From Minisyncoccota bacterium (GTDB lineage: Bacteria > Patescibacteriota > Minisyncoccia > UBA6257 > JAGOQP01): a DNA stretch of 64,000 nt. Where the stretch lies: the NCBI GenBank assembly GCA_041661795.1, contig JBAZTS010000002.1, forward strand, positions 36,263 to 100,262, in the 5' to 3' direction. This document shows, in pieces, positions 8,968 to 62,743 of this stretch. The notes beneath the pieces were generated by a model. The model was not told where the DNA came from. It did not search any database and saw only the letters and a program-made list of their open reading frames with translations. The translations under genes were made by a program, and so were the position numbers. Position 1 is the first letter of the stretch. Each line of letters begins with the position of its first letter.

Positions 8968-9067
8968 TAATGCCTCTTGAGTGAAGTGCCGAGCAGCCCT
9001 CTGCGATGATATCGATAGAGGATTGCCCTTTCGTTTCCCTCCGCCCTCGGGCGGAGGGTTTTGTTTT
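8968..9067 (+). ncRNA. Candidate small structured RNA or leader with its own -10 box and intrinsic terminator
   Basis: TATAAT at 8966-8971, then a locally GC-rich stretch with nested stems (cctct...agagg, gcgatgatatcga). Hairpin ccctccgccctcgggcggaggg (9037-9058) is followed by a T-run. Confidence 0.3.
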
Positions 9068-10420: not shown

Positions 10421-10451
10421 ACCCCCACACTAATGGAATTAGTGTGGGGGT
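10421..10451. repeat. GC-clamped palindrome CCCCCACACTAAT-gga-ATTAGTGTGGGGG (family copy 1)
   Basis: 13-bp perfect arms. It ends about 9 nt before a TATACT box upstream of hpf. Related copies at 15334-15362 and 37311-37369. Confidence 0.8.
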
Positions 10452-15280: not shown

Positions 15281-15333
15281 ATGAGATTATTATATCACAA
15301 TGGTGATTTTTATTCACTAAGATTGTGGATAAA

Positions 15334-15362
15334 TCCCCACACTAATTCTATTAGTGTGGGGA
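15334..15362. repeat. GC-clamped palindrome TCCCCACACTAAT-tct-ATTAGTGTGGGGA (family copy 2)
   Basis: 13-bp perfect arms between the lepB-like stop and the pilin-like start. Adjacent to a TGTGGATAA box at 15324-15332. Confidence 0.8.
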
Positions 15363-15367
15363 TAAAC

Positions 15368-21522: not shown

Positions 21523-21596
21523 CTTGTATATAGTAGCTCGTATCTTGTATAAGAGAAGATTGTATGCCAACTACTAGCTACAAGATACTAGATACA
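21519..21596 (+). terminator. Word-built imperfect hairpin after the DHH gene (probable terminator)
   Basis: gtagcttgtatatagtagctcgtatcttgtataag ... ccaactactagctacaagatactagatacaa. The arms are about 75% complementary by eye. Confidence 0.4.
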
Positions 21597-35979: not shown

Positions 35980-36627
35980 TTAGTATCTTAATACCTTATT
36001 AATTCTCTCTACCGCCAAATTCATATTCCTCATTCCCTGACCGACAGGATAGTAGGTTGGATAAACTAAAAACTTTTTGTTTCTGACATTTAAAGTTTCA
36101 CCTTCTTTATTTTTATAATTGCTTACTTTTATTTTTTTATCCAAAAGAATCGAACTTACTTGATTCCCAAAGGTTATAATTTTTTTGGGATTGACCGACA
36201 AAATTTCTCGGAACATCAAATCCAGATATTCTCTAAAAATTCTATCATTAAGGGAATGAGCGTCTATTTGGGTGCACTTTGCTAAATTGGTTATATAAAC
36301 TTTGTTTTCGTTAATTTCTTGATAGATATTTTTTGAAAAGTCATAAGTCCAGTCACCAAACTTGATCTTTTGCGTTTTGTCAAAACTGCTTTTGGAAATA
36401 AACTCTAATTTATATAAAAGCTTCCATATATTTTTTGTTCCCAGCCACGGAGCTCTCAACCCTTTCCAATTTTTATCGGCGGATATGTTCCTTGCCGTGG
36501 GATTCATAAAAATAAGCATAATCTGGGGACTTCTAATACACCCGGCTCCGTATACGGAATTGAGATTAGAATGGCCGTGTAGAACCTGTAGTCGGTCAAA
36601 TCTTTTATGTAGGTGCTTTAACTGCAT
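35980..36627 (-). CDS. Uracil-DNA glycosylase superfamily protein (divergent)
   Basis: IMLIFMNPTARN, YITNLAKCTQ and a UDG-like length and layout. Weaker match than the family-4 UDG at 43325-43930. Confidence 0.5.
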   Translation of the reverse strand: MQLKHLHKRFDRLQVLHGHSNLNSVYGAGCIRSPQIMLIFMNPTARNISADKNWKGLRAPWLGTKNIWKLLYKLEFISKSSFDKTQKIKFGDWTYDFSKNIYQEINENKVYITNLAKCTQIDAHSLNDRIFREYLDLMFREILSVNPKKIITFGNQVSSILLDKKIKVSNYKNKEGETLNVRNKKFLVYPTYYPVGQGMRNMNLAVERINKVLRY

Positions 36628-37176: not shown

Positions 37177-37310
37177 CCATACTATTCTTTTTACACCATC
37201 CTCTCTGCGCTTTTTATCAGCTCTTCCTTTTTTCTTTTGTTTATTGTATACCCTAATCAGTACTAAAAGAGAGCGATAAGGGCTCTTTTTACAGCTCTTT
37301 GACAGATACA

Positions 37311-37369
37311 CCCCCACACCAATTTTGCTTATTATCGTCAAGTGCGTGTTGGCAGAATTGGTGTGGGGG
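37311..37369. repeat. GC-clamped inverted repeat CCCCCACACCAATT ... AATTGGTGTGGGGG (family copy 3, 31-nt loop)
   Basis: 14-bp perfect arms that share the CCCCCACAC clamp with copies 1 and 2. Upstream of the 37419 gene. Confidence 0.75.
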
Positions 37370-37418
37370 TAAATAGCGACTCTGCAAATCAGATTTAATA
37401 GAGTTTTAATGCAAAAAT

Positions 37419-38006: not shown

Positions 38007-38141
38007 AAATAAATCCTCTCATTTCGAGAGGATTTATTTTTATAATATTTTGTGTAATTTTTATATCTATCATTTCTTGCTACAGCAACCAGATTTATAT
38101 ATAACCGGTACTTAATATGTAATTTTTTGTATATAGTATTT

Positions 38142-38167
38142 GGTATACGGTATACGATATTCGGTAT
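38142..38167. repeat. 26-nt word repeat (ggtatacggtatacgatattcggtat), inverted copy of 51147-51172
   Basis: 24/26 identical to the reverse complement of 51147-51172. Lies immediately after the dnaX stop. Confidence 0.7.
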
Positions 38168-38168
38168 T

Positions 38169-39272
38169 CTATTTTAGATTCTCTATTATAGCTATCTCAA
38201 AGGGCACCAAGGGGAAAGGATTGTATTTCATTTGGGAGTAGGCGGTGATGAGCGCTTTTATAAGTTTTATCTGCTCGTCCGTATCTATTTTAGCCGAATG
38301 TTTTTTTATTTCTTTTATTTGGCTTTCGGCCAATTCCTTTTCAAATATCTTTTCCAGTTCCGGATTAAGATGTAAAGAAAGAACCCTTCTTAAATATTCT
38401 GTCAGATCTTTGTTAAATTGAAAAAGATTGTATCCCTGACTGTTTATTTCGTATAAAAATTCCAGCGACTTTTGTAAGTCCTTTTTTATGACCAAATCGG
38501 CCATTTTTATTGTTTTTAGAAAATCAACTTTTCCCAAGATGCTTTCCACGTATTCAACGGTAATATTCTTGCCCTTCATGGAAACAATCTGGTCAAAAAG
38601 AGATTCGGCATCTCTTAAACTTCCTTCAGCTAAAAAGGCAATCATTTCCAAAGCTTCTTTTTCGTATTCTACTTTTTCTTCTTTGGCGATAAATGAAAGT
38701 TTTTTTATAATCTCCTGTAGTGTCAGCTTTCTAAAATGAAATCTCTGGGTTCGGGAAACAATAGTGGGAGGGAGCTTGTCGTATTCGGTGGTGGCTAATA
38801 TAAAAACGGCATGGGCTGGCGGTTCTTCTAAAGTTTTTAAAAGAGCGTTAAATGCCTGTGGAGTGAGCATGTGAACTTCATCTATGATAAAGATTTTGTA
38901 TTTAAGATAAGAGGGGAGTGTTTTTATGTTTTCTTTGAGATTTCTTATTTCATCTATTCCTCGGTTGGAAGCGGCGTCAATTTCAACGACATCCAAAGCT
39001 CTGCCTTCTTCAACTTGTAAACAGGCGTGACATTCTCCACAGGGCTCTCCTTGCTTGGCAAAGTTTTCGTCCTCTTGTCTTTTCTGGCAGTTAATTATTT
39101 TGGAAAAGATTCTGGCGATAGTTGTTTTGCCGGTTCCTCTTGAACCGTAGAAAAGATAGGCATGAGAAATTTTACCTTCCTTAACTGAATTTTGAAGTAT
39201 GGTAACCGTATTTTCCTGACCGTAAATATCAGCAAGTTTTTTTGGTCGGTATTTTCTATAAATAGCTAACAT
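38169..39272 (-). CDS. dnaX: DNA polymerase III subunit gamma/tau (short form)
   Basis: YRPKKLADIYGQ, HAYLFYGSRGTGKTT, the zinc module CGECHACL, IFIIDEVHMLT and SRTQRF. Confidence 0.93.
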   Translation of the reverse strand: MLAIYRKYRPKKLADIYGQENTVTILQNSVKEGKISHAYLFYGSRGTGKTTIARIFSKIINCQKRQEDENFAKQGEPCGECHACLQVEEGRALDVVEIDAASNRGIDEIRNLKENIKTLPSYLKYKIFIIDEVHMLTPQAFNALLKTLEEPPAHAVFILATTEYDKLPPTIVSRTQRFHFRKLTLQEIIKKLSFIAKEEKVEYEKEALEMIAFLAEGSLRDAESLFDQIVSMKGKNITVEYVESILGKVDFLKTIKMADLVIKKDLQKSLEFLYEINSQGYNLFQFNKDLTEYLRRVLSLHLNPELEKIFEKELAESQIKEIKKHSAKIDTDEQIKLIKALITAYSQMKYNPFPLVPFEIAIIENLK

Positions 39273-39278
39273 ATCAAT

Positions 39279-39309
<31 letters not shown>

Positions 39310-39325
39310 TAAAGAGCTATGAAAT

Positions 39326-39923
39326 AAAAAAAGCCCGCCGGTGTCTTCCGAGGAAGTCCTGGCGGGGTGGAACAGGTGGTGCGACCTTAGCTCACTCGGT
39401 GCTGTCGAGTTCGCTCGCCCGATATACTCTCCGGGTGATACGAGAGCTCGAATCTGCCGAGACGTGACGCGTGGTCACTTTTTGCTAAGGTTTTTTGGGG
39501 TGCTGCTCCTCTTCCTGTTCGGTACTTTCTAAGAACGGTTCCCACACCGTTCTCGCCGGCGAGCTTAGCTCGCGCAGGGTAGAGGCGCCTCCTAAAGGAG
39601 GCAAAACATGAGTACAAATTCGGAATTGGATTTTTGTGAGTTTCCGGACTCACTATCTCGTTTGGTGCACCTCCCGAGAAGTCCTTTTCCTTCCACTTAT
39701 TATTGGGCCAGTTTGAGATCAGCGGTGGACACTCAAACTGTTTGCGTGCTTTCACCGAGCTTGCCGGATTTACTCGGATCTTTGGTGAGATGGCGCAACC
39801 CCACAGTTTTGACCTCCCTCAGCTGCGCGCGCAACTGAGTTGTCAGCTCACCTAGTGACAGAGGCCCCCTTTTTGACCGTTTTTTCTTCTTGGTCCGGAA
39901 GGGTTTCCGTGCTACATTTTTAT
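39326..39923 (-). ncRNA. GC-rich ~600-nt transcription unit of unknown identity (large structured RNA candidate)
   Basis: It runs from a near-consensus promoter (39930-39957) to a strong terminator (cccgccagg...ccggcggg plus U7). It is dense in local hairpins (gcgagc-tta-gctcgc, gcctcc-taaa-ggaggc, cagtttgag...ctcaaactg, gtgagt...actcac). Only composition-type ORFs are present. Confidence 0.4.
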
Positions 39924-39929
39924 GCCTGT

Positions 39930-39957
39930 ATTATACTCCTTTTGTTTTATTTGTCAA
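39930..39957 (-). promoter_or_regulatory. Sigma-70-type promoter TTGACA-16-TATAAT driving the GC-rich unit
   Basis: The minus strand reads ttgacaaataaaacaaaaggagtataat. Both hexamers are perfect. Confidence 0.6.
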
Positions 39958-40020
39958 GTACCCATAATAAAGTTCTAAAAACCTTGGAATTTAGTGTTTT
40001 TGGCTATATAATTAATTAGT

Positions 40021-48998: not shown

Positions 48999-49663
48999 TG
49001 TTATACGTTGTTTCTACTCCAGTCGGTAATTTAAAAGATATTTCGGAACGTGCTTTAGAAACATTGAAAAATGTTGATTTTATAATTGCTGAAAGTCCGA
49101 CCGACTCAATAAAACTTCTTAACGCTTATTCTATAAAAAAAGAAATAGTTAAGTATAACGACAAAAATAACAAGTTGGTTGTTAATAAAATTGTTGAACG
49201 GCTGGAGAATGAAAATGCCGCTTATATAACGTCTGCTGGAACTCCTGGCATAAGTGATCCTGGTGCTGATTTGGTTAAAAAAACAAGAGAAACTGGAGTG
49301 ATAATAAATATAATTCCTGGAGCATCGGCTTTAGTTAGTGCCGTTGCCGTTTCTGGAATAAGAGCCAAGCTGTTTACATTTATTAGTTTTCCGCCAAAAA
49401 AATCGGGGCAGATGAAAAATTTTTTTGATGAATATAAAGAAAGAAAAGAAGTTTTGGTATTTTTTGAATCAACCCATCGTATATTAAAAACTTTAAATAT
49501 TTTAAAAGAAACAGTGCCTGATTGTTATGTTTGTGTAGCCAAAGAAATGACCAAGATATTTGAAAATTATTTTACCGGAAGTCCACAGGAGGTTATTGAT
49601 AAAATTAGTGAATTGCCTAAAAACGTAAGAGGGGAGTTTACGATTGTGATTGACTTTAAATAA
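48998..49663 (+). CDS. rsmI: 16S rRNA (cytidine1402-2'-O)-methyltransferase
   Basis: LYVVSTPVGNLKDIS, AGTPGISDPG and FESTHR. Confidence 0.9.
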   Translation: MLYVVSTPVGNLKDISERALETLKNVDFIIAESPTDSIKLLNAYSIKKEIVKYNDKNNKLVVNKIVERLENENAAYITSAGTPGISDPGADLVKKTRETGVIINIIPGASALVSAVAVSGIRAKLFTFISFPPKKSGQMKNFFDEYKERKEVLVFFESTHRILKTLNILKETVPDCYVCVAKEMTKIFENYFTGSPQEVIDKISELPKNVRGEFTIVIDFK

Positions 49664-49698
49664 ATAAAAAGATATTTTTCTGTTAAGGGGGATGGATA

Positions 49699-49926
49699 AT
49701 GGCTAGAAGAAAACCGGCAAGATCGATAACCATAGATAGGATGACAAGGATGATTTGCGGAGTGCTGATTCCGTCAATTATCCTTCCTCGACTACAAGAG
49801 GCGGAAGACATCGCCCTTCGGACTCTGGGGGCTTTAGGAAAGTCCCAGAGTGAAGCTCGTCATCTTTTCTGGGTGGCTATTGAGACACTCGCCAAGAGTG
49901 AGCAGATTTCCAACGGCACGCAATAG
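49699..49926 (+). CDS. GC-rich 75-aa hypothetical protein (compositionally foreign island E)
   Basis: AAGGGGGA lies 6 nt upstream of the ATG. A GC-clamped terminator (aggcgcggaac-ttg-ttccgcgcct) follows. The sequence is visibly more GC-rich than its flanks. Confidence 0.45.
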   Translation: MARRKPARSITIDRMTRMICGVLIPSIILPRLQEAEDIALRTLGALGKSQSEARHLFWVAIETLAKSEQISNGTQ

Positions 49927-49975
49927 ACAGCTCTTTCCAACTATAGGCGCGGAACTTGTTCCGCGCCTTCTGCAT

Positions 49976-51133
<1,158 letters not shown>

Positions 51134-54618: not shown

Positions 54619-54626
54619 AATTTTCT

Positions 54627-54654
54627 GCCACCTTTTTGGTCAGAAAAAGGTGGC
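54627..54654 (-). promoter_or_regulatory. Perfect 11-bp hairpin that sequesters the uvrB Shine-Dalgarno
   Basis: Minus-strand RNA reads GCCACCUUUUU-cugacc-AAAAAGGUGGC followed by agaaaauu and AUG. The AAGGUGG SD is fully paired. Confidence 0.5.
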
Positions 54655-54842
54655 GCCAAAACTGACAACCCTGTATATCCTCTCAAACAAATGAAACAAA
54701 TATCTCGCTTTGTCTTGAACTCGTATCTGCTATACTCACACACTCAAGACACTAAAAGCTCATATTTGCTTTATTTGTTAGTGTTCGGACATACGGGTTG
54801 ATATTTAGCTAATAATAGCCCTAAATCTAGTGTTTGTTAATA

Positions 54843-54871
54843 TTGACTTATTAGTAATAATATGATATACT
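54843..54871 (+). promoter_or_regulatory. Sigma-70-type promoter TTGACT-17-TATACT for GC-rich island A
   Basis: ttgacttattagtaataatatgatatact. The AT-rich promoter abuts the GC-rich transcribed region. Confidence 0.55.
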
Positions 54872-54962
54872 CAAAACAAGTTTCGAAACCGCTTCACTGC
54901 CGTGAACAACACTACAGAAAGAGCGGTCGGAGCACTGCTCTTTCACAGAAAGGGGAACTTCG

Positions 54963-55361
54963 ATGAGTGGGATCGCTTGGTTTTTCGAGGTGTTCGCTCT
55001 GCTGTTTTTCGTGGGGACTCTGGGCGTTGCTTTCATCGGACGCCGCATCCTCAAGGCGGAGCAGGAGTCGTCGGTTCTGATGTCTTTCCTCCAGATCTGC
55101 AGTGGAGCGCTCTTCATCTTCTACGTTTTCGGACTGGGTCAACTCATGGCTCTGTCTGGACTGGAAGGTGCAAGGGCGCCCCGGTGGCTGATTCCGGGCA
55201 CCTACATCACTCTCACCATCTTCAGCGCGTTGACTCGGCTGGCTCTTCCAAGGTGGGGCAGTGACAACAAAGCGATGCAACTCTGGAGTGTCGTCAGCGT
55301 CCTGACGTTCCTACTCGGCACGTTCTGCCTCGGGGCGTACTCGTCCAACTACTTCGAGTAG
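54963..55361 (+). CDS. GC-rich 132-aa four-TM membrane protein (compositionally foreign island A)
   Basis: AAAGGGGAA SD. Four hydrophobic helices (WFFEVFALLFFVGTLGVAFI, LQICSGALFIFYVFGLGQLMAL, GTYITLTIFSALTRLAL, LWSVVSVLTFLLGTFCLGAY). Own terminator. Confidence 0.65.
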   Translation: MSGIAWFFEVFALLFFVGTLGVAFIGRRILKAEQESSVLMSFLQICSGALFIFYVFGLGQLMALSGLEGARAPRWLIPGTYITLTIFSALTRLALPRWGSDNKAMQLWSVVSVLTFLLGTFCLGAYSSNYFE

Positions 55362-55386
55362 GTCTCCTTCTTCAGCTCTTCAACTG

Positions 55387-55420
55387 GCGGCGTCTCTCAC
55401 GAGGCGCCGCACTGCTTTTT
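55387..55420 (+). terminator. Intrinsic terminator of island A
   Basis: gcggcgtctc-tcac-gaggcgccgc followed by a T-run. Confidence 0.7.
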
Positions 55421-55467
55421 ATATGGTTATAAAATTTATATAAATTTCCCCGTCAATATAAATCCGC

Positions 55468-56607
55468 TTAATCGGTATATGTCCGTGACCGACGTAGTCG
55501 GTGGTATCGTATAGCAAATCTGTGGGCTTCGTTTCTTAACGAAAGTAATGTATTTTTAACATCTTCGGGGATTTGGCTCAAGCTGATAGGGGATTTTGAA
55601 TAGGGACTGTAAATCAATCCTTTTGTTTGTGATCTTTTATATTTCTTGCCAACATCGTTAATTAACTTACCATTACAATTAGAACGATCGTTGTAATTGT
55701 AATGGTGTGGATTATTACCCACAGATTGCAATTTGCCCACGTTTAGTTTTGCTAGAGCTATCATCGGAATCTTAATTGTTTTGAGTTGTGAGATTTGTGA
55801 TTTTCCTCCGTCAATGATAATTAAATCCGGATATTTCCATTCTTTGTGGTTAAGGCGTCTTTCTATAATTTCTTTTATTGAAGCCGGGTCATTGGCTCCT
55901 TTTATCGTTTTTATTTTAAATTTTCTGTAAAGATTTTTATTAGGTTTATTTCCGATAAACGTTACCATTGAGCCAACTGACAAACTACCTTGGGTATTGG
56001 AAATGTCGTAGCACTCAATATGTGTTTTTTCTCCATTATATAAACGAAGAAAAGTTTTTAATCCATTAACCACCTGGATGTATTTTTTTACTTCGATATT
56101 ATGAGCGGAACATAACCCTAAGTGATAATACAAGCACGGCTTTTCCGGTTTATTTTTACATGTGCGATAGGGGAATATTCTTCTGATTATCAATAAGAGA
56201 TGCTTAATCTCTTTTGCGTCTACAAACGGGCCAACAAAATCGGCTTTAAATTTTTTTGTTTGGTGTGTTAAAAGCACTCTGGGGTACTTTTCGTCGGTAA
56301 AAGCTATATACAAAAAATCCTTGTCATCTTTAAGTTCAATGTTATATTTTGGCTGATACTGTCTAACTAATTTTCTTTCTAAAATCAAGGCGTCTTTTTC
56401 AGATGGGGTTTCTATAAAATCTAAGTCAGCTACTTGTTTGTAAAAATTAATAGAAGCATTCTCTTGTCTAGAAAAATGCGATTCTATTCTCTTTTTTATA
56501 TTAATAGCTTTTCCGATATACAAAATCTTCTCATTCTTATCTTTGAAAATATATACTCCCGGTTTCTTAGGAAGTGCTTTTATCTTATTCTTCAGGATTG
56601 TTTTCAC
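55468..56607 (-). CDS. uvrC: UvrC-like excinuclease subunit, short form (GIY-YIG plus RNase-H-like endonuclease region; no UVR or HhH2 domains seen)
   Basis: PGVYIFKDKNEKILYIGKAINIKKR (GIY-YIG), IECYDISNTQG, PDLIIIDGGKSQ, IALAK and RNEAHRFAI. 379 aa versus about 600 aa canonically. Contains the palindrome at 55669-55706 in frame. Confidence 0.8.
   Translation of the reverse strand: MKTILKNKIKALPKKPGVYIFKDKNEKILYIGKAINIKKRIESHFSRQENASINFYKQVADLDFIETPSEKDALILERKLVRQYQPKYNIELKDDKDFLYIAFTDEKYPRVLLTHQTKKFKADFVGPFVDAKEIKHLLLIIRRIFPYRTCKNKPEKPCLYYHLGLCSAHNIEVKKYIQVVNGLKTFLRLYNGEKTHIECYDISNTQGSLSVGSMVTFIGNKPNKNLYRKFKIKTIKGANDPASIKEIIERRLNHKEWKYPDLIIIDGGKSQISQLKTIKIPMIALAKLNVGKLQSVGNNPHHYNYNDRSNCNGKLINDVGKKYKRSQTKGLIYSPYSKSPISLSQIPEDVKNTLLSLRNEAHRFAIRYHRLRRSRTYTD
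55669..55706. repeat. Palindromic element copy a (inside uvrC, in frame)
   Basis: accattacaattagaacgatcgttgtaattgtaatggt. On the minus strand it encodes part of NNPHHYNYNDRSNCNGKL. Confidence 0.85.
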
Positions 56608-56644
56608 TGTTTTTTTATTTTTATCCTTATCTTAATCTTAATCT

Positions 56645-56682
56645 ACCATTACATTTAGAACGATCGTTCTAAATGTAATGGT
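56645..56682. repeat. Palindromic element copy b
   Basis: accattacatttagaacgatcgttctaaatgtaatggt is a perfect 38-nt palindrome. It ends 2 nt from the stop of the 56685-57245 gene. Confidence 0.9.
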
Positions 56683-56684
56683 GG

Positions 56685-57245
56685 CTAGATTTTCTTTATA
56701 GTCCCCATTTTTCCTATTTCCAATATCTCCACGTATTCGTTTATTCTCATTTTTTCTAAATCTTCCACAAACTTTTTAGGAATTTTTATTTTTCCTATCC
56801 AGACACTTTTTTGCAACATTTCAAATCCAATATTCTTTACAGCTGATCTTAACCAAGCCCTCTTCCTTTTAAATTTTTCCGGAACATCAAAAGCTATCAA
56901 AATAACATTGTTTCCGGCTTCTTTCTTATAATCTAAAGCTGGAGATTGATTATTGGATACCCGGTTAATAAGTTTTTTGGCTTTTTTAGTAATCTTGATA
57001 ATCAACCCCTCTTTTTGTTCTATGAGTCCGTCTTTCTTAAGACGATAAATCATTACCCTATATCTGTTTCTTATTTTTTCTTTCTCTGTTTTGATAGTCT
57101 CATTTTTAGTGCCGATTCTATTTAAATTGTCTCTTAATATAGACGTTGAGCCCCAAGAGAATAAAAACGCTTCAAAAGCATTAGAGTATGTTTGTCTATC
57201 TACATTATTTAGAAAACTTATTGTTTCTCTATTTCTTGCCCTCAT
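56685..57245 (-). CDS. PaaX-like / Cas2-fold-like putative regulator (wHTH plus ferredoxin-like C-terminal domain)
   Basis: wHTH-like RVMIYRLKKDGLIEQ. The C-terminus VILIAFDVPEKFKRKRAWLRSAVKNIGFEMLQKSVWIG resembles the PaaX C-domain or Cas2 beta-alpha-beta core. Bracketed by palindrome copies b and c. Confidence 0.55.
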   Translation of the reverse strand: MRARNRETISFLNNVDRQTYSNAFEAFLFSWGSTSILRDNLNRIGTKNETIKTEKEKIRNRYRVMIYRLKKDGLIEQKEGLIIKITKKAKKLINRVSNNQSPALDYKKEAGNNVILIAFDVPEKFKRKRAWLRSAVKNIGFEMLQKSVWIGKIKIPKKFVEDLEKMRINEYVEILEIGKMGTIKKI

Positions 57246-57269
57246 AACAATATTATATCATCATTTATT

Positions 57270-57306
57270 ACCATTACAATTAGAACGATCGTTCTAATTG
57301 TAATGG
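57270..57306. repeat. Palindromic element copy c
   Basis: accattacaattagaacgatcgttctaattgtaatgg lies 24 nt upstream of the 56685-57245 gene start. Confidence 0.9.
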
Positions 57307-57417
57307 AGGGAGTATATATGATTAAGAATATTAAATAATTATCATAGAGTTATTATGATTATAGATTGATTTTATCGTTTTAATTAAAGAGTGCCTTATA
57401 AATTAGCACGGACCGCT

Positions 57418-57570
57418 TTATGGGCGGTCCGGGATGGGTGGAGCGGGTGCGGGCTTGACCACTTTGGCCACGAGGCCGATTAATATGGTCAGCATTGAAA
57501 CGGGTACTACGGTGGCGATGATGACGGACGATTCCACCACCACCAGAGACCACTTGACTAGGTAGTGCAT
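57418..57570 (-). CDS. GC-rich island B gene 4: 50-aa hydrophobic protein (not in the ORF track)
   Basis: AAAGGAGGU lies 4 nt upstream of the ATG. Product is MHYLVKWSLVVVESSVIIATVVPVSMLTILIGLVAKVVKPAPAPPIPDRP. The start overlaps the gene 3 stop. The stop codon sits in the loop of the ggaccgc...gcggtcc hairpin. Confidence 0.55.
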   Translation of the reverse strand: MHYLVKWSLVVVESSVIIATVVPVSMLTILIGLVAKVVKPAPAPPIPDRP

Positions 57571-57689
57571 TCAACCTCCTTTCTTCTGAGAATCTTGGTG
57601 ATCCACAGATAGAGGTTGTATCCTGTTTGAATAACGTGGGCCATCTTTTGGCCCAGTATTGTCGTCCGATGAAACGTTGTTGTAGACAT
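57558..57689 (-). CDS. GC-rich island B gene 3: 43-aa protein
   Basis: AAAGGAGA lies 4 nt upstream of the ATG. Product is MSTTTFHRTTILGQKMAHVIQTGYNLYLWITKILRRKEVECTT. The longer 100-aa track ORF in this frame lacks an SD. Confidence 0.45.
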   Translation of the reverse strand: MSTTTFHRTTILGQKMAHVIQTGYNLYLWITKILRRKEVECTT

Positions 57690-57703
57690 CACGTCTCCTT
57701 TGG

Positions 57704-57949
57704 TTAGGCGATGGCGCCGGGGTATTCTTCGGAGATCTTCTCGATCTCTTTTTCCTCTTTCTTCACTTGGTCTGTGAGCACAAGGAAGAAAAAGATGATG
57801 GCCATGATTCCCACAAGAGTGGCAAAGGCCCATGAAAAGCTCTTGGGGAGTTGGAACCATCGTGATAAGTGATATCCTCCAAAAGTGAGAATTACCACGG
57901 CCACGGTCGCTCCAACTTTACGGAGCAAGTTGAGTAGTCCCGGGAACAT
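57704..57949 (-). CDS. GC-rich island B gene 2: 81-aa two-TM protein with acidic/basic tail
   Basis: AAGGAGGAG lies 4 nt upstream of the ATG. TM segments are VGATVAVVILTFGGY and WAFATLVGIMAIIFFFLVL, followed by the tail KKEEKEIEKISEEY. Confidence 0.65.
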   Translation of the reverse strand: MFPGLLNLLRKVGATVAVVILTFGGYHLSRWFQLPKSFSWAFATLVGIMAIIFFFLVLTDQVKKEEKEIEKISEEYPGAIA

Positions 57950-58193
57950 TACTCTCCTCCTTTTTGGTGTACATCTTTCGAAGTTTCTCCTGTAGAGCGT
58001 TGAGCCCCGTGAAGACCAGGGCTCCGGTCAGAAACCCGATACAAGCCAACGATCCTCGGATCTCCAATCCTGGAGGCAGTGGAACTCGGTCTGCCCATAG
58101 GACCGTGAAGAAACAGGAAGCAGCAGTTGAAAGGCCAACGAAAGTGAACCAAACCACTCTTGCGATCAACTCCAGAACTTTTCCGATTTTCAT
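57918..58193 (-). CDS. GC-rich island B gene 1: 91-aa two-TM protein with charged tail
   Basis: GAGGAGGA lies 6 nt upstream of the ATG. TM segments are VVWFTFVGLSTAASCFFTVLW and LACIGFLTGALVFTGLNAL, followed by the tail QEKLRKMYTKKEES. The layout is holin-like. Confidence 0.65.
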   Translation of the reverse strand: MKIGKVLELIARVVWFTFVGLSTAASCFFTVLWADRVPLPPGLEIRGSLACIGFLTGALVFTGLNALQEKLRKMYTKKEESNVPGTTQLAP

Positions 58194-58280
58194 GCTCTGA
58201 TCCTCCTCTGTTTTTCACATTATAATAATCATTGAATTTTGTCCATGTTTGATTTAGAATAACCCTTTGGTTGGCATTTT

Positions 58281-61411: not shown

Positions 61412-61941
61412 AAAAAGGGGGCTCCCGGTGTTGCTGGGAGCCCAAAGTGCGGTAAGGAGGTCAATGTACGATGCGGTGCCTGCCGTGCGTCGCTTCGCTC
61501 GTTCGGGTCTTGGTGGTTCAGATCAGGGCCAGTCGTGCCCGAAAACTTAACTTTCTGGCCCATTGCTTCTCGGCACGCATGGTTTCTCCTTGCATGGATT
61601 TTTGGTCCACGCAGCTCTGCCCTCAGCGCTTGACGGTGGCCTCGTCGTTGGTGCGGTGGTTGTTCTGACGCTGTTGCATGGGATTTCTCCTCGCGTGAAC
61701 GTCGTCGGTTGTTGGTGCTAGCTATGGCTCAAGTCAAGCTTTCTTTTCGGTGAGCTTGACGAGCAGTGCTAGCGCCTGTTCTGGGTTTCGTTTTTTATCG
61801 GTATAACCTTCACAAGGTTATACCAGGGTTTCCTTCCTGATTGGCGGTCAAGAAGGTTGTTTAATCATCCAGCATTGTCCTAACTAACGGAACGGCGGTT
61901 CGACGTCCACGTGCATCGCTTTCCTCCTTATGTAGTTTACT
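61410..61941 (-). ncRNA. GC-rich ~530-nt transcription unit (large structured RNA and/or SD-led micro-ORF cassette)
   Basis: Promoter at 61948-61976. Terminator gggctccc-agcaacac-cgggagcccc plus U7. The 5' uaaggagg...cgaugc can pair with the 3' gcaucg...ccuccuua. It contains an 11-bp GUGA-capped hairpin (ggtataacctt gtga aggttatacc). No ORF over 25 aa has a plausible start. Confidence 0.4.
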
Positions 61942-61947
61942 TATTTC

Positions 61948-61976
61948 AGGATAAAACAAAAACGGCTATTAGTCAA
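61948..61976 (-). promoter_or_regulatory. Sigma-70-type promoter TTGACT-17-TATCCT for the GC-rich unit
   Basis: The minus strand reads ttgactaatagccgtttttgttttatcct, located just after the SDR stop codon. Confidence 0.45.
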
Positions 61977-61991
61977 ATATTTTTGTGAAAC

Positions 61992-62693
61992 TTACTTTTG
62001 ATGCTGAAACACATCTATTATCAAATTTTGGTCGGGGATAATTTCTTTTTTTAATGCTTTGACAATGACCTGAGCAACTTGATTTGGAGTATGTTTTGGT
62101 TCATGGTCGGGAAAACATGTTTTAAACATTCCAGTATCGGTTGAGCCGGGAGTAATTGTAAAAACGTCTATATTGTATTTGGAAAGTTCGTCTTTTAACG
62201 ACTGAGAAAGATTTATAATCGCCGCTTTAGTTAGAGAATAAATAGAGAGTCCTTCAATCCCGTAAAATCCGGCTCCAGAAGAAATATTGACGATTAATCC
62301 GGATTTCTTTTCTTTCATAATTTCAAGAACCCTTTTTATAACATTTAAAGTTCCTTTGATGTTAACGTCTATAATAAAATTCCAGTCAGGATAATCGGTT
62401 TCTTCAAAATTTTTATTCTGGGCAACAGCCGCATTGTTTACTAAAATATCTATACTTCCGAATTTATCAATCGTTTCTTCAATAACTTTTTCAACATCTT
62501 CTTTTGTTCTTATATCGCCTTGAGTAACTAAAAAATTGGGATTTTTTAAAATCACTTCCGTATCCAAATTATCGGGGATATTAATGGAAACCGTAGAAAC
62601 TTTACATCCTTGGTCAAGCAAGAGTTTGGCTGTTTCAAGACCTATTCCCGACGTTGCTCCAGTTATAAATACAACTTTATTTTTTATGTCCAT
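61992..62693 (-). CDS. SDR family oxidoreductase
   Basis: TGATSGIG, NNAA and the S...YSLTKAA catalytic triad region. Confidence 0.9.
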   Translation of the reverse strand: MDIKNKVVFITGATSGIGLETAKLLLDQGCKVSTVSINIPDNLDTEVILKNPNFLVTQGDIRTKEDVEKVIEETIDKFGSIDILVNNAAVAQNKNFEETDYPDWNFIIDVNIKGTLNVIKRVLEIMKEKKSGLIVNISSGAGFYGIEGLSIYSLTKAAIINLSQSLKDELSKYNIDVFTITPGSTDTGMFKTCFPDHEPKHTPNQVAQVIVKALKKEIIPDQNLIIDVFQHQK

Positions 62694-62743
62694 AAGATTA
62701 GTATATAGTATTTAGTAGTTAGTATATAGTATAATAGAAACAA

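Follow-up and report, generated by a model that had tools for sequence, protein, structure and literature searches.

A PaaX-like gene family of Paceibacterota is bracketed by long CGATCG-centred palindromes that may be its cognate operators

In a 64,000-nucleotide (nt) stretch of a Minisyncoccota bacterium genome (hereafter the window; positions 36,263 to 100,262 of contig JBAZTS010000002.1, assembly GCA_041661795.1), a palindrome of 36–38 nt is present in three copies, two of which bracket a gene for a 186-aa protein, here called mini-PaaX, and the third of which lies in frame within uvrC. Homologues of mini-PaaX in related bacteria are bracketed by palindromes of the same design, with the same centre, CGATCG, and with arms of their own. 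Judging from these comparisons of sequences, we give a probability of roughly 55% to the reading that the palindromes are the cognate duplex-DNA sites of mini-PaaX acting as a dimeric autorepressor. The window has a G+C content of ~36% and belongs to a contig of 156 kb from the metagenome-assembled genome of a Candidatus Paceibacterota bacterium (ENA ERZ27249449 k141_214873). The features on which the argument turns are the following.

55468–56607, minus strand: uvrC, short type of the candidate phyla radiation (CPR), 379 aa, with GIY-YIG and UvrC RNase H-like domains; carries palindrome copy a
55669–55706, inside uvrC: palindrome copy a, 19-nt arms, 95%, 1 mismatch, zero-spacer (inverted-repeat finder)
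56645–56682: palindrome copy b, perfect over 38 nt, 19-nt arms, 100% complementary, zero-spacer (inverted-repeat finder)
56685–57245, minus strand: mini-PaaX gene, 186 aa, predicted winged helix-turn-helix (wHTH) plus Cas2-like domain (Pfam, NCBIfam, AlphaFold2 model, Foldseek)
57252–57279, minus strand: sigma-70-like promoter, TTGTAA-16 nt-TATAAT with TG extension (consensus match only, 10/12)
57270–57306: palindrome copy c, perfect over 57271–57306, 18-nt arms, 100% complementary, zero-spacer (inverted-repeat finder)

The window contains three occurrences of an 18-nt core, TTAGAACGATCGTTCTAA (at 55679, 56655 and 57280, in one case with 1 mismatch), against none in 100 dinucleotide-preserving shuffles, and none of the three palindromes is expected by chance. 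The initial annotation had described three perfect copies of 36–38 nt; their sites and lengths stand, as do the distances it gave for the two bracketing copies (2 nt beyond the stop and 24 nt ahead of the start of the 186-aa gene), but copy a is imperfect, with one mismatch at G 55693. Copy b, 2 nt past the mini-PaaX stop codon, also lies 37 nt upstream of the GTG start of uvrC, copy c is 24–25 nt upstream of the mini-PaaX ATG, and the spacings among the three palindromes are 625 and 976 nt. When the copies are aligned with 60 nt of flank, their likeness stops at the edges of the 38-mer (ACCATTACA...TGTAATGGT) and the flanks are unrelated. Copies b and c differ at a single position, an A/T swap that is mirrored on both arms. 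The predicted hairpins are stable, with energies as DNA of −10.6 to −15.6 kcal/mol (z-scores −4.7 to −9.3).

Only three copies are present in ~82 kb of the source contig, as would befit a small operator set and not a dispersed repeat, and the hexamer CGATCG occurs 5 times in 64 kb, close to its frequency in shuffles. An apparent deficit of GATC, suggestive of restriction avoidance, was set aside as a likely counting artefact, the count for this palindromic word being precisely half of its mean in shuffles. A search of 185,579 species-representative genomes, the source genome not among them, for an exact 26-nt palindrome pattern gave 0 matches. The identical 186-aa protein and the UvrC protein, the latter differing only in the translation of its GTG start, are on record from NCBI, JGI and ENA, and UvrC also from Logan; the palindromes are therefore not an artefact of assembly.

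The PaaX/Cas2-type fold that the initial annotation had assigned to the bracketed gene is borne out by profile and structure comparisons. Pfam PaaX_M (PF20803, 'PaaX central Cas2-like domain') matches residues 116–178 at E = 9.6e-12 (45.3 bits against a cut-off of 24), and the Cas2 model TIGR01573 scores 27.4 bits against a cut-off of 24.5, over profile positions 3–43 of 96 only. The PaaX equivalog TIGR02277 fails, with 12.9 bits against 264.55, and the sole Pfam match of the N-terminal half, Mrr_N, is under its cut-off (20 bits against 29.5). In an AlphaFold2 model built with 20 homologues (mean predicted local distance difference test score 86.5), helices at 6–71 are followed by a beta-hairpin wing at 75–85 and then by a ferredoxin-like domain. 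The best fold matches in the PDB, all with E above 0.001, are E. coli PaaX (8a39; E = 0.012, Foldseek probability 0.99) and many Cas2 chains (probability 0.9–0.99), the leading matches lying at 0.97–0.99. The protein ends after the Cas2-like domain, without the C-terminal effector (phenylacetyl-CoA) domain of PaaX. As modelled, then, the 186-aa product is a 'mini-PaaX', a wHTH joined to a Cas2-like domain and devoid of an effector domain; by analogy with PaaX and Cas2, its Cas2-like domain probably mediates dimerisation.

This family is sizeable. A profile search of 1.84 billion representative proteins, clustered at 50% identity, returned 750 homologue clusters at E ≤ 1e-30, and the 150 best listed are all 174–225 aa long, mostly 185–215; family members are annotated as Cas2 by the NCBI pipeline and as PaaX by JGI. 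Invariant columns of the protein alignment fall mostly in the Cas2-like half and in the LKKDGLI wing, and the N-terminus is variable. The Asp of the Cas2 'xDIxE' motif is kept, D120 being invariant in the family alignment. PADLOC gave a partial Cas2 match only, PHROGs nothing meaningful, and no homologue was found in 2.9 million IMG/VR viral contigs. A viral link by way of the 18-mer was discarded, the three IMG/VR matches being chance matches with no extended palindrome.

The bracket is a property of the family. We examined 79 loci with homologues from species-representative genomes, all of Paceibacterota/Parcubacteria lineages and 1.2 Mb in total, in which start codons were assigned mechanically. 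When arms of at least 12 nt with at most 2 mismatches are counted, a palindrome is found upstream of the gene in 49/79 loci, downstream in 59/79 and on both sides in 44/79, and some of the loci scored as lacking a copy carry degenerate palindromes. The upstream copy usually ends 4–125 nt before the start codon, and the downstream copy begins a median of ~22 nt after the stop. Among zero-spacer palindromes in the 1.2 Mb (at least 13 matching arm pairs, at most 1 mismatch), 96 of 121 are centred on CGATCG, nearly all of these within ~300 nt of the ends of a mini-PaaX gene, and at least 15 further loci have the centre CG[AC]CG or CG[GT]CG. Arm sequences differ among genomes and also among paralogues, of which several genomes have two or three. 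The two closest homologues on long contigs stand in unrelated contexts, one among type IV pilus genes and one beside ribosomal protein L25, and each is bracketed by its own pair: TCTTACATTATTATC-CGATCG-GATAATAATGTAAGA and GGTTACATCACTCA-CGATCG-TGAGTGATGTAACC, respectively. Neighbouring genes are co-directional or opposed in 30 versus 23 cases downstream and 31 versus 16 upstream, and this mixed orientation indicates that the palindromes go with the mini-PaaX gene and not with its neighbours. A full-text literature search found no description of such a gene–palindrome module.

Extra solo palindromes in these loci are few and intergenic. In L034 an additional pair, with a sequence of its own, flanks a second paralogue; the adjacent operon in L015 and L069 is closed off by a third identical palindrome, and in L074 one lies just beyond the homologous giant gene. 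A giant gene, encoding a secreted protein of 1300–1770 aa, adjoins the cassette in four genomes (L015 3856–10520, L069 4951–10510, L074 2433–9371 and L034 2501–10452), and its L015 product has staphylococcal-nuclease (SNase) and lamin-tail domains. The third palindrome in L015, L069 and L074 hints at co-regulation of the giant-protein operon. Separately, L037 opens (1–142), exactly at the contig start, with a perfect 142-nt palindrome that has 71-nt arms and a GCGATCGC centre and may be a fold-back assembly artefact seeded at a palindrome of the mini-PaaX type. Palindromes of this kind seem to break assemblies, as in L005, whose contig ends exactly inside one.

In the 101 distinct palindromes compared, the centre alone is fixed: its C and G never vary, and 77 have A as the base preceding CG. 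The arms are low in information, with weak peaks that lie ~10, 15 and 19–20 nt away from the centre and frequently take the form TTAC(A/T). Across 84 centred 40-mers, 93.6% of cells are paired, compared with 53% in shuffles and 35–44% when partners are slid by 1–3 columns, a figure that is partly circular in that the sequences had been selected as palindromic; the covariation score of the same set is 0.979, against 0.205 in shuffles. A less biased test sets the upstream against the downstream copy of the same locus, and here 90 of 144 differing arm positions are mirrored on both arms. Mismatches on the sense strand number 30 for G.T and 23 for A.C, with no bias toward G.U. Since the centre is self-complementary and G.T mismatches are no commoner than A.C, the symmetry looks to be one of DNA and not of RNA.

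Copy c overlaps the putative promoter of the gene. The promoter-like site at 57252–57279 has the top score on the minus strand, tied with one plus-strand site in the region; copy c contains its −35-like hexamer, and only 6 nt separate the end of its −10 from the mini-PaaX ATG, so that the mRNA may have no leader or a very short one. Across the 49 loci that have an upstream copy, the zone at 15–39 nt from the palindrome centre holds 47 −10-like hexamers on the gene side, against 17 in the mirror control. PaaX of E. coli recognises a 39-bp site, TGATTC-N27-GAATCA, in which the inverted half-sites are at the outer ends, and it is a repressor of its own promoter (PMC9493321). The window palindrome, 36–38 bp long and holding the −35, matches that operator in length and layout, and by this analogy mini-PaaX is predicted to bind it.

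The copy within uvrC was read by the initial annotation as lying in frame in an extra stretch of the protein, and both the translation and the comparison with homologues agree. Copy a is translated as ...NNPHHYNYNDRSNCNGKL..., with 55669–55704 encoding the 12 residues H302–G313 (HYNYNDRSNCNG). In the uvrC frame a perfect palindrome would read CAT TAC AAT TAG and end in a stop. Copy a has TTGTAA where b and c have TTCTAA; the resulting G at 55693, its sole mismatch (G.G with 55682), turns codon 305 into TAC (Tyr) instead of TAG, and it is by this substitution that the reading frame stays open. A TAA interrupts one of the two remaining frames, and the other, although open, would give a hydrophobic peptide (ITIRTIVLIVM). 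When 20 short CPR-type UvrC proteins, 51–60% identical to that of the window, are aligned, the peptide falls within a variable-length loop bounded by IALAK and RxEAHRFAI (RNEAHRFAI in the window). The insert is missing from 19/19 homologues, and the window loop is the longest in the alignment by at least 4 residues.

Nor is the palindrome confined to the three sites in the window, a restriction that the initial annotation had named as grounds for refuting its reading: a search of JGI metagenome contigs with the 26-nt pattern gave a single match, on Ga0172379_10011626 (L002), inside a MurF-like gene whose PDB matches are MurF ligases (E down to 1e-18; the alignments end before the palindrome site). 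The murF copy is 37/38 identical to copy a, agrees with it in frame and shares its TAG>TAC change, its translation being ...INDHYNYNDRSKCNGEE..., so that the MurF fragment carries the same 12-aa peptide. When all four copies are compared, similarity again ends at the 38-mer. L002 has no mini-PaaX gene in its 10.4 kb and shares no DNA with the source contig besides the palindrome and a 31-nt intergenic motif; this motif and its G+C suggest that it comes from a related organism. A 48-aa artificial query for the HYNYNDRS[NK]CNG peptide produced 36 word-sharing candidates, none with E ≤ 10, and alignments of the flanks of the in-gene copies, which might have revealed a larger inserted element or partial arm copies, were no better than shuffles (p = 0.11–0.99). 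The shared TAC suggests that a stop-free variant was copied rather than a stop repaired twice, since an insertion bearing TAG would truncate MurF about halfway.

The sequences show the anatomy of the module, its association with the family, the covariation and the overlap with a promoter-like site; from these we infer, as the most economical reading, that mini-PaaX binds the palindromes and represses its own transcription. A mini-PaaX dimer would sit on the dyad, with its conserved Cas2-like core facing the invariant CGATCG centre and its two variable winged helices reading the lineage-specific, often TTAC-type outer arms ~15 bp to each side; this pairing is proposed because invariant and variable parts run parallel in protein and DNA. 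Binding at copy c, over the −35 and spacer of the promoter, would cause autorepression, and copy b would be a second site that could strengthen repression through looping over the 625-bp gene and could also act on the adjacent uvrC. Copy a would be a stray site that came to lie in a variable loop on the surface of UvrC and persists, thanks to TAG>TAC, as a hydrophilic 12-aa insert. Of the roles that the initial annotation had offered for the palindromes, that of binding sites for the wHTH protein has gained most support, homologues being bracketed by palindromes of their own; that of recombination sites is a possible alternative, and that of RNA processing stems has gained no support, mismatches on the sense strand showing no G.U bias.

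Several observations weigh against this operator reading. Besides the circularity of the pairing figure, exact symmetry over arms of 18–26 bp exceeds the requirements of a dimeric repressor. The region yields no more promoter-like matches than shuffles do. The palindrome that follows the stop codon directly in most loci is unusual for an operator, and the retained D120 means that mini-PaaX may be a nuclease rather than a mere repressor. The shared TAG>TAC change of the two in-gene copies, one of them in the presumably essential murF, suggests that the 38-mer itself has spread to new sites by copying, for which a passive operator offers no explanation. Template-switch correction of quasipalindromes is an established mutational mechanism. 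Such hairpin-mediated 'correction' during replication, or a need for cruciform extrusion, could have produced the exact symmetry, and is invoked because protein contacts alone would not account for symmetry at positions that differ between copies. As an operator system, the module would be a PaaX-type regulator with a long palindromic operator, itself a known kind, with a minority chance of something more unusual.

It is the copy after the stop, the retained D120 and the apparent copying of the stop-free 38-mer that keep a nuclease-driven alternative alive, one which we regard as possible though unlikely. Here palindrome, gene and palindrome would form a selfish, mobile or recombining cassette, comparable to a REP-associated tyrosine transposase (RAYT) gene flanked by repetitive extragenic palindromic (REP) sequences. 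The wHTH would target the palindrome, and the Cas2-like domain would nick or join at the CGATCG centre, thereby copying the 38-mer or the cassette, also into uvrC and murF; inversion or excision could occur between the flanking copies, the palindrome being identical in both orientations.

That the cassette was gained at the uvrA–uvrC site follows from its absence in syntenic relatives. Two of them (L086 and L087) share the uvrA / uvrC–uvrB arrangement, and L087 also shares the flanks of the window (Cpn60-Cpn10-RmuC-SDR-uvrA / uvrC-uvrB-...-TGT). In both, uvrA and uvrC are divergent and 53–133 nt apart, with no cassette, and uvrC and uvrB are separated by 1–28 nt, compared with a uvrA–uvrC spacer of 1673 nt in the window, made up of a G+C-rich operon of four small open reading frames (ORFs) and the palindrome–gene–palindrome cassette, and a uvrC–uvrB spacer of 849 nt with 54% G+C. 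At ~55% protein identity between the window and the syntenic genomes, the junctions of the cassette are not definable.

Further features speak for mobility: the gene is bracketed on both sides whatever the orientation of its neighbours, genomes can hold multiple paralogues, each accompanied by palindromes of its own, the Cas2-type Asp does not vary, the in-gene copies look like copies of an already 'coding-competent' variant, and the L005 contig breaks exactly within a palindrome. In L009 (1227–2960), the unit of gene and palindrome faces the opposite way with respect to a conserved neighbour when compared with L024, L018, L023, L049, L010 and other loci, the outcome expected of recombination between flanking palindromes. 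On the other hand, the source contig holds just the three copies noted above and solo copies elsewhere are few, and no transposase, integrase or Cas1 was found among the genes called on ~58 kb of that contig, at and beyond the window ends, the central window not being scanned. Neither a target-site duplication nor a conserved flank is present, the neighbouring gene is the same in many loci, which implies long vertical residence, and the viral contigs searched contain no homologue.

A bolder form of this alternative, which we consider doubtful, is that the wHTH–Cas2-like protein and its CGATCG palindromes constitute an unrecognised, self-contained DNA-transaction module of CPR bacteria, in which an active nuclease or joining domain of Cas2 fold would be brought to the centre of the palindrome by the winged helix and there copy, excise or invert the DNA that lies between palindromes. 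If true, this would explain the exact symmetry of the arms, the cassette-like bracket and the spread of the 'stop-free' 38-mer into uvrC and murF, and it would amount to a REP/RAYT-like system built on the Cas2 fold, with a possible view of what this fold does outside CRISPR. A mobile or nuclease element would, if real, be a new kind of palindrome-associated genetic element.

Two G+C-rich segments adjoin the region. Between uvrA and the cassette, the operon at 57410–58230 (minus strand, ~48% G+C) has ORFs of 91, 81, 43 and 50 aa, each with a strong GGAGG-type ribosome-binding site and at least 3 with hydrophobic or membrane-like products; it ends in a GC-rich hairpin at ~57412–57432, is absent from the syntenic L086 and L087, and looks like acquired DNA. 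Between uvrC and uvrB, an island at 54619–55467 (54% against ~36% G+C) holds a 132-aa hydrophobic ORF on the plus strand (54963–55361) with no Pfam match, and similar islands occur near 39000–40000, 49500–50000 and 61500–62000.

An RNA role strikes us as improbable. The palindromes would then act as RNA hairpins, with stems of 17–19 bp and a GAUC loop, that insulate, terminate, stabilise or mark for processing the mini-PaaX mRNA and that the Cas2-like domain perhaps binds or cleaves; RNases have been reported among Cas2 proteins, going by the titles of PDB entries 3exc and 4mak. The stable folds, although computed as DNA, and the strong covariation would suit such hairpins, as would a downstream copy at a median of ~22 nt after the stop codon and, in 23 loci, in the terminator-like position between convergent genes. 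The loop, however, is self-complementary with zero spacer, which RNA does not need, and on the sense strand G.U is not in excess relative to A.C. Since the −35 of the promoter-like site falls within copy c, that copy would lie outside the gene's own transcript. The initial annotation was right that no U-run follows copy b, for the sense (minus) strand continues as AGAUUAAGAUU. A terminator scan found no match on that strand and flagged copy b on the plus strand only, and weakly (tail CTAGATTTTC, 6 GC pairs of 19); the G+C-rich stem followed by a U-run on the transcribed strand that marks a Rho-independent terminator is thus not seen. An Rfam search of the window returned only RNase P and two tRNAs, with no family at the palindromes.

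Generic explanations unrelated to the gene (terminators, SOS boxes bound by LexA in the uvr cluster, HIP1-like repeats or assembly artefacts) are hardly credible: the window copies do lie within a uvrA–uvrC–uvrB cluster and their centre does equal the HIP1 core CGATCG (PMC4390886), but the comparative data contradict all of these, in that the design accompanies mini-PaaX in other genomes to unrelated surroundings (a secreted nuclease operon, type IV pilus genes, ribosomal protein L25), uvr clusters that are syntenic but have no such gene also lack the intervening cassette, CGATCG is at about its shuffle frequency, and the sequences recur in independent assemblies.

Other repeats and genes were noted along the way. 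A different, intergenic hairpin family, with stems A(C/T)CCCCACAC...GTGTGGGG(G/A)T, occurs in the window at 10421–10451, 15333–15363 and 37310–37370 and in another Paceibacterota genome (L019 4481–4510 and 7269–7296); its sequence is unrelated to the palindrome, it may be a terminator or repeat family, and it is probably the other hairpin to which the initial annotation referred. A TAGTA/GTAT-rich intergenic motif (e.g. TTAGTATATAGTATTTAGTAGTTAGTATA) is found in the window at 21523–21551, 38126–38154 and 62698–62726 and in L002 at ~820–860, 1450–1490 and 8972–9002, with 90% identity over 31 nt shared between the two, and a similar GTAT-rich repeat occupies L006 10855–10983; the motif may be a promoter or UP-like element of the lineage. 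On the source contig, ~7 kb past the window end (L093 17991–19587), a gene for an N6/N4 DNA methyltransferase precedes a DUF6996/DUF6997 gene, and the two may form a restriction-modification pair.

CPR bacteria, or Patescibacteria, have very few recognisable regulators, and almost none with a known site; here a sizeable family comes with a probable DNA target that can be read from the genome. The protein–DNA recognition code and any regulon are testable with a 38-bp oligonucleotide, and the family, with its invariant centre, variable arms and several paralogues per genome, is a clean natural data set of protein/site covariation. It also places a Cas2 fold at work outside CRISPR and urges caution with automatic 'Cas2' annotation, and the uvrC and murF copies are a compact case of a regulatory palindrome turned coding by one stop-removing substitution.

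Among known systems, CRISPR Cas2 shares with mini-PaaX the ferredoxin-like fold, the xFDIPE Asp motif and the name given by the NCBI pipeline, and we take the QKSVW of mini-PaaX to be similar to the Q-SVF motif of Cas2. Unlike CRISPR Cas2, however, mini-PaaX is fused to a predicted wHTH, and its 'repeats' are 2–3 palindromes, 625–976 nt apart, that enclose a gene and not spacers. No CRISPR array was seen, the repeat finders showing the three palindromes only, and Cas1 is not among the genes called on the ~58 kb, a set that leaves the central window unchecked for cas genes. Cyanobacterial HIP1 (GCGATCGC) has the same CGATCG core, and some mini-PaaX loci even carry GCGATCGC; HIP1, though, is an 8-mer hyper-abundant throughout the genome, whereas in the present case CGATCG occurs at chance frequency and forms the centre of rare palindromes of 30–52 nt beside one gene family.

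Rickettsia palindromic elements (RPE) reportedly resemble copy a in being palindromic repeats in frame within housekeeping genes and tolerated as an extra surface peptide, and uvrC indeed has an in-frame repeat in a conserved gene that is absent from the 19 homologues compared. The RPE unit is said to be ~100–150 nt, against 36–38 nt here, with dozens of in-gene cases against two; moreover, the window palindrome is tied to the gene for a specific DNA-binding protein, and its open frame needs a stop-removing point substitution.

REP/RAYT systems (REPIN), as they are reported, offer a closer parallel: a single-copy gene is flanked by cognate palindromic repeats, as in the window and on both sides in 44/79 loci, and the repeat is lineage-specific, co-varies with the gene and has extra solo copies elsewhere. 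Mini-PaaX is nevertheless not a HUH/Y1 (IS200/IS605-like) transposase, Pfam and NCBIfam giving PaaX_M and Cas2 only. Its palindromes are perfect and spacer-free, with a universal centre and without the conserved GTAG-type cleavage tetranucleotide of REPs, and in place of many dispersed extragenic copies there are three in the ~82 kb.

PaaX itself differs in size (~305–316 aa, as against 186 aa for mini-PaaX, which is without the C-terminal phenylacetyl-CoA-binding domain), and no paa genes lie near mini-PaaX, whose family is, as far as seen, confined to Paceibacterota/Parcubacteria, often with several paralogues per genome. The mini-PaaX site departs from the PaaX operator in being an exact palindrome with an invariant CGATCG centre and in having a second copy just after the stop codon. 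Even so, PaaX of E. coli and Pseudomonas has the architecture predicted for mini-PaaX, an N-terminal wHTH followed by a Cas2-like middle domain (PaaX_M; 8a39), and its operator is likewise a long site (~39 bp) with inverted outer half-sites that lies over the regulator's own promoter and mediates autorepression (PMC9493321).

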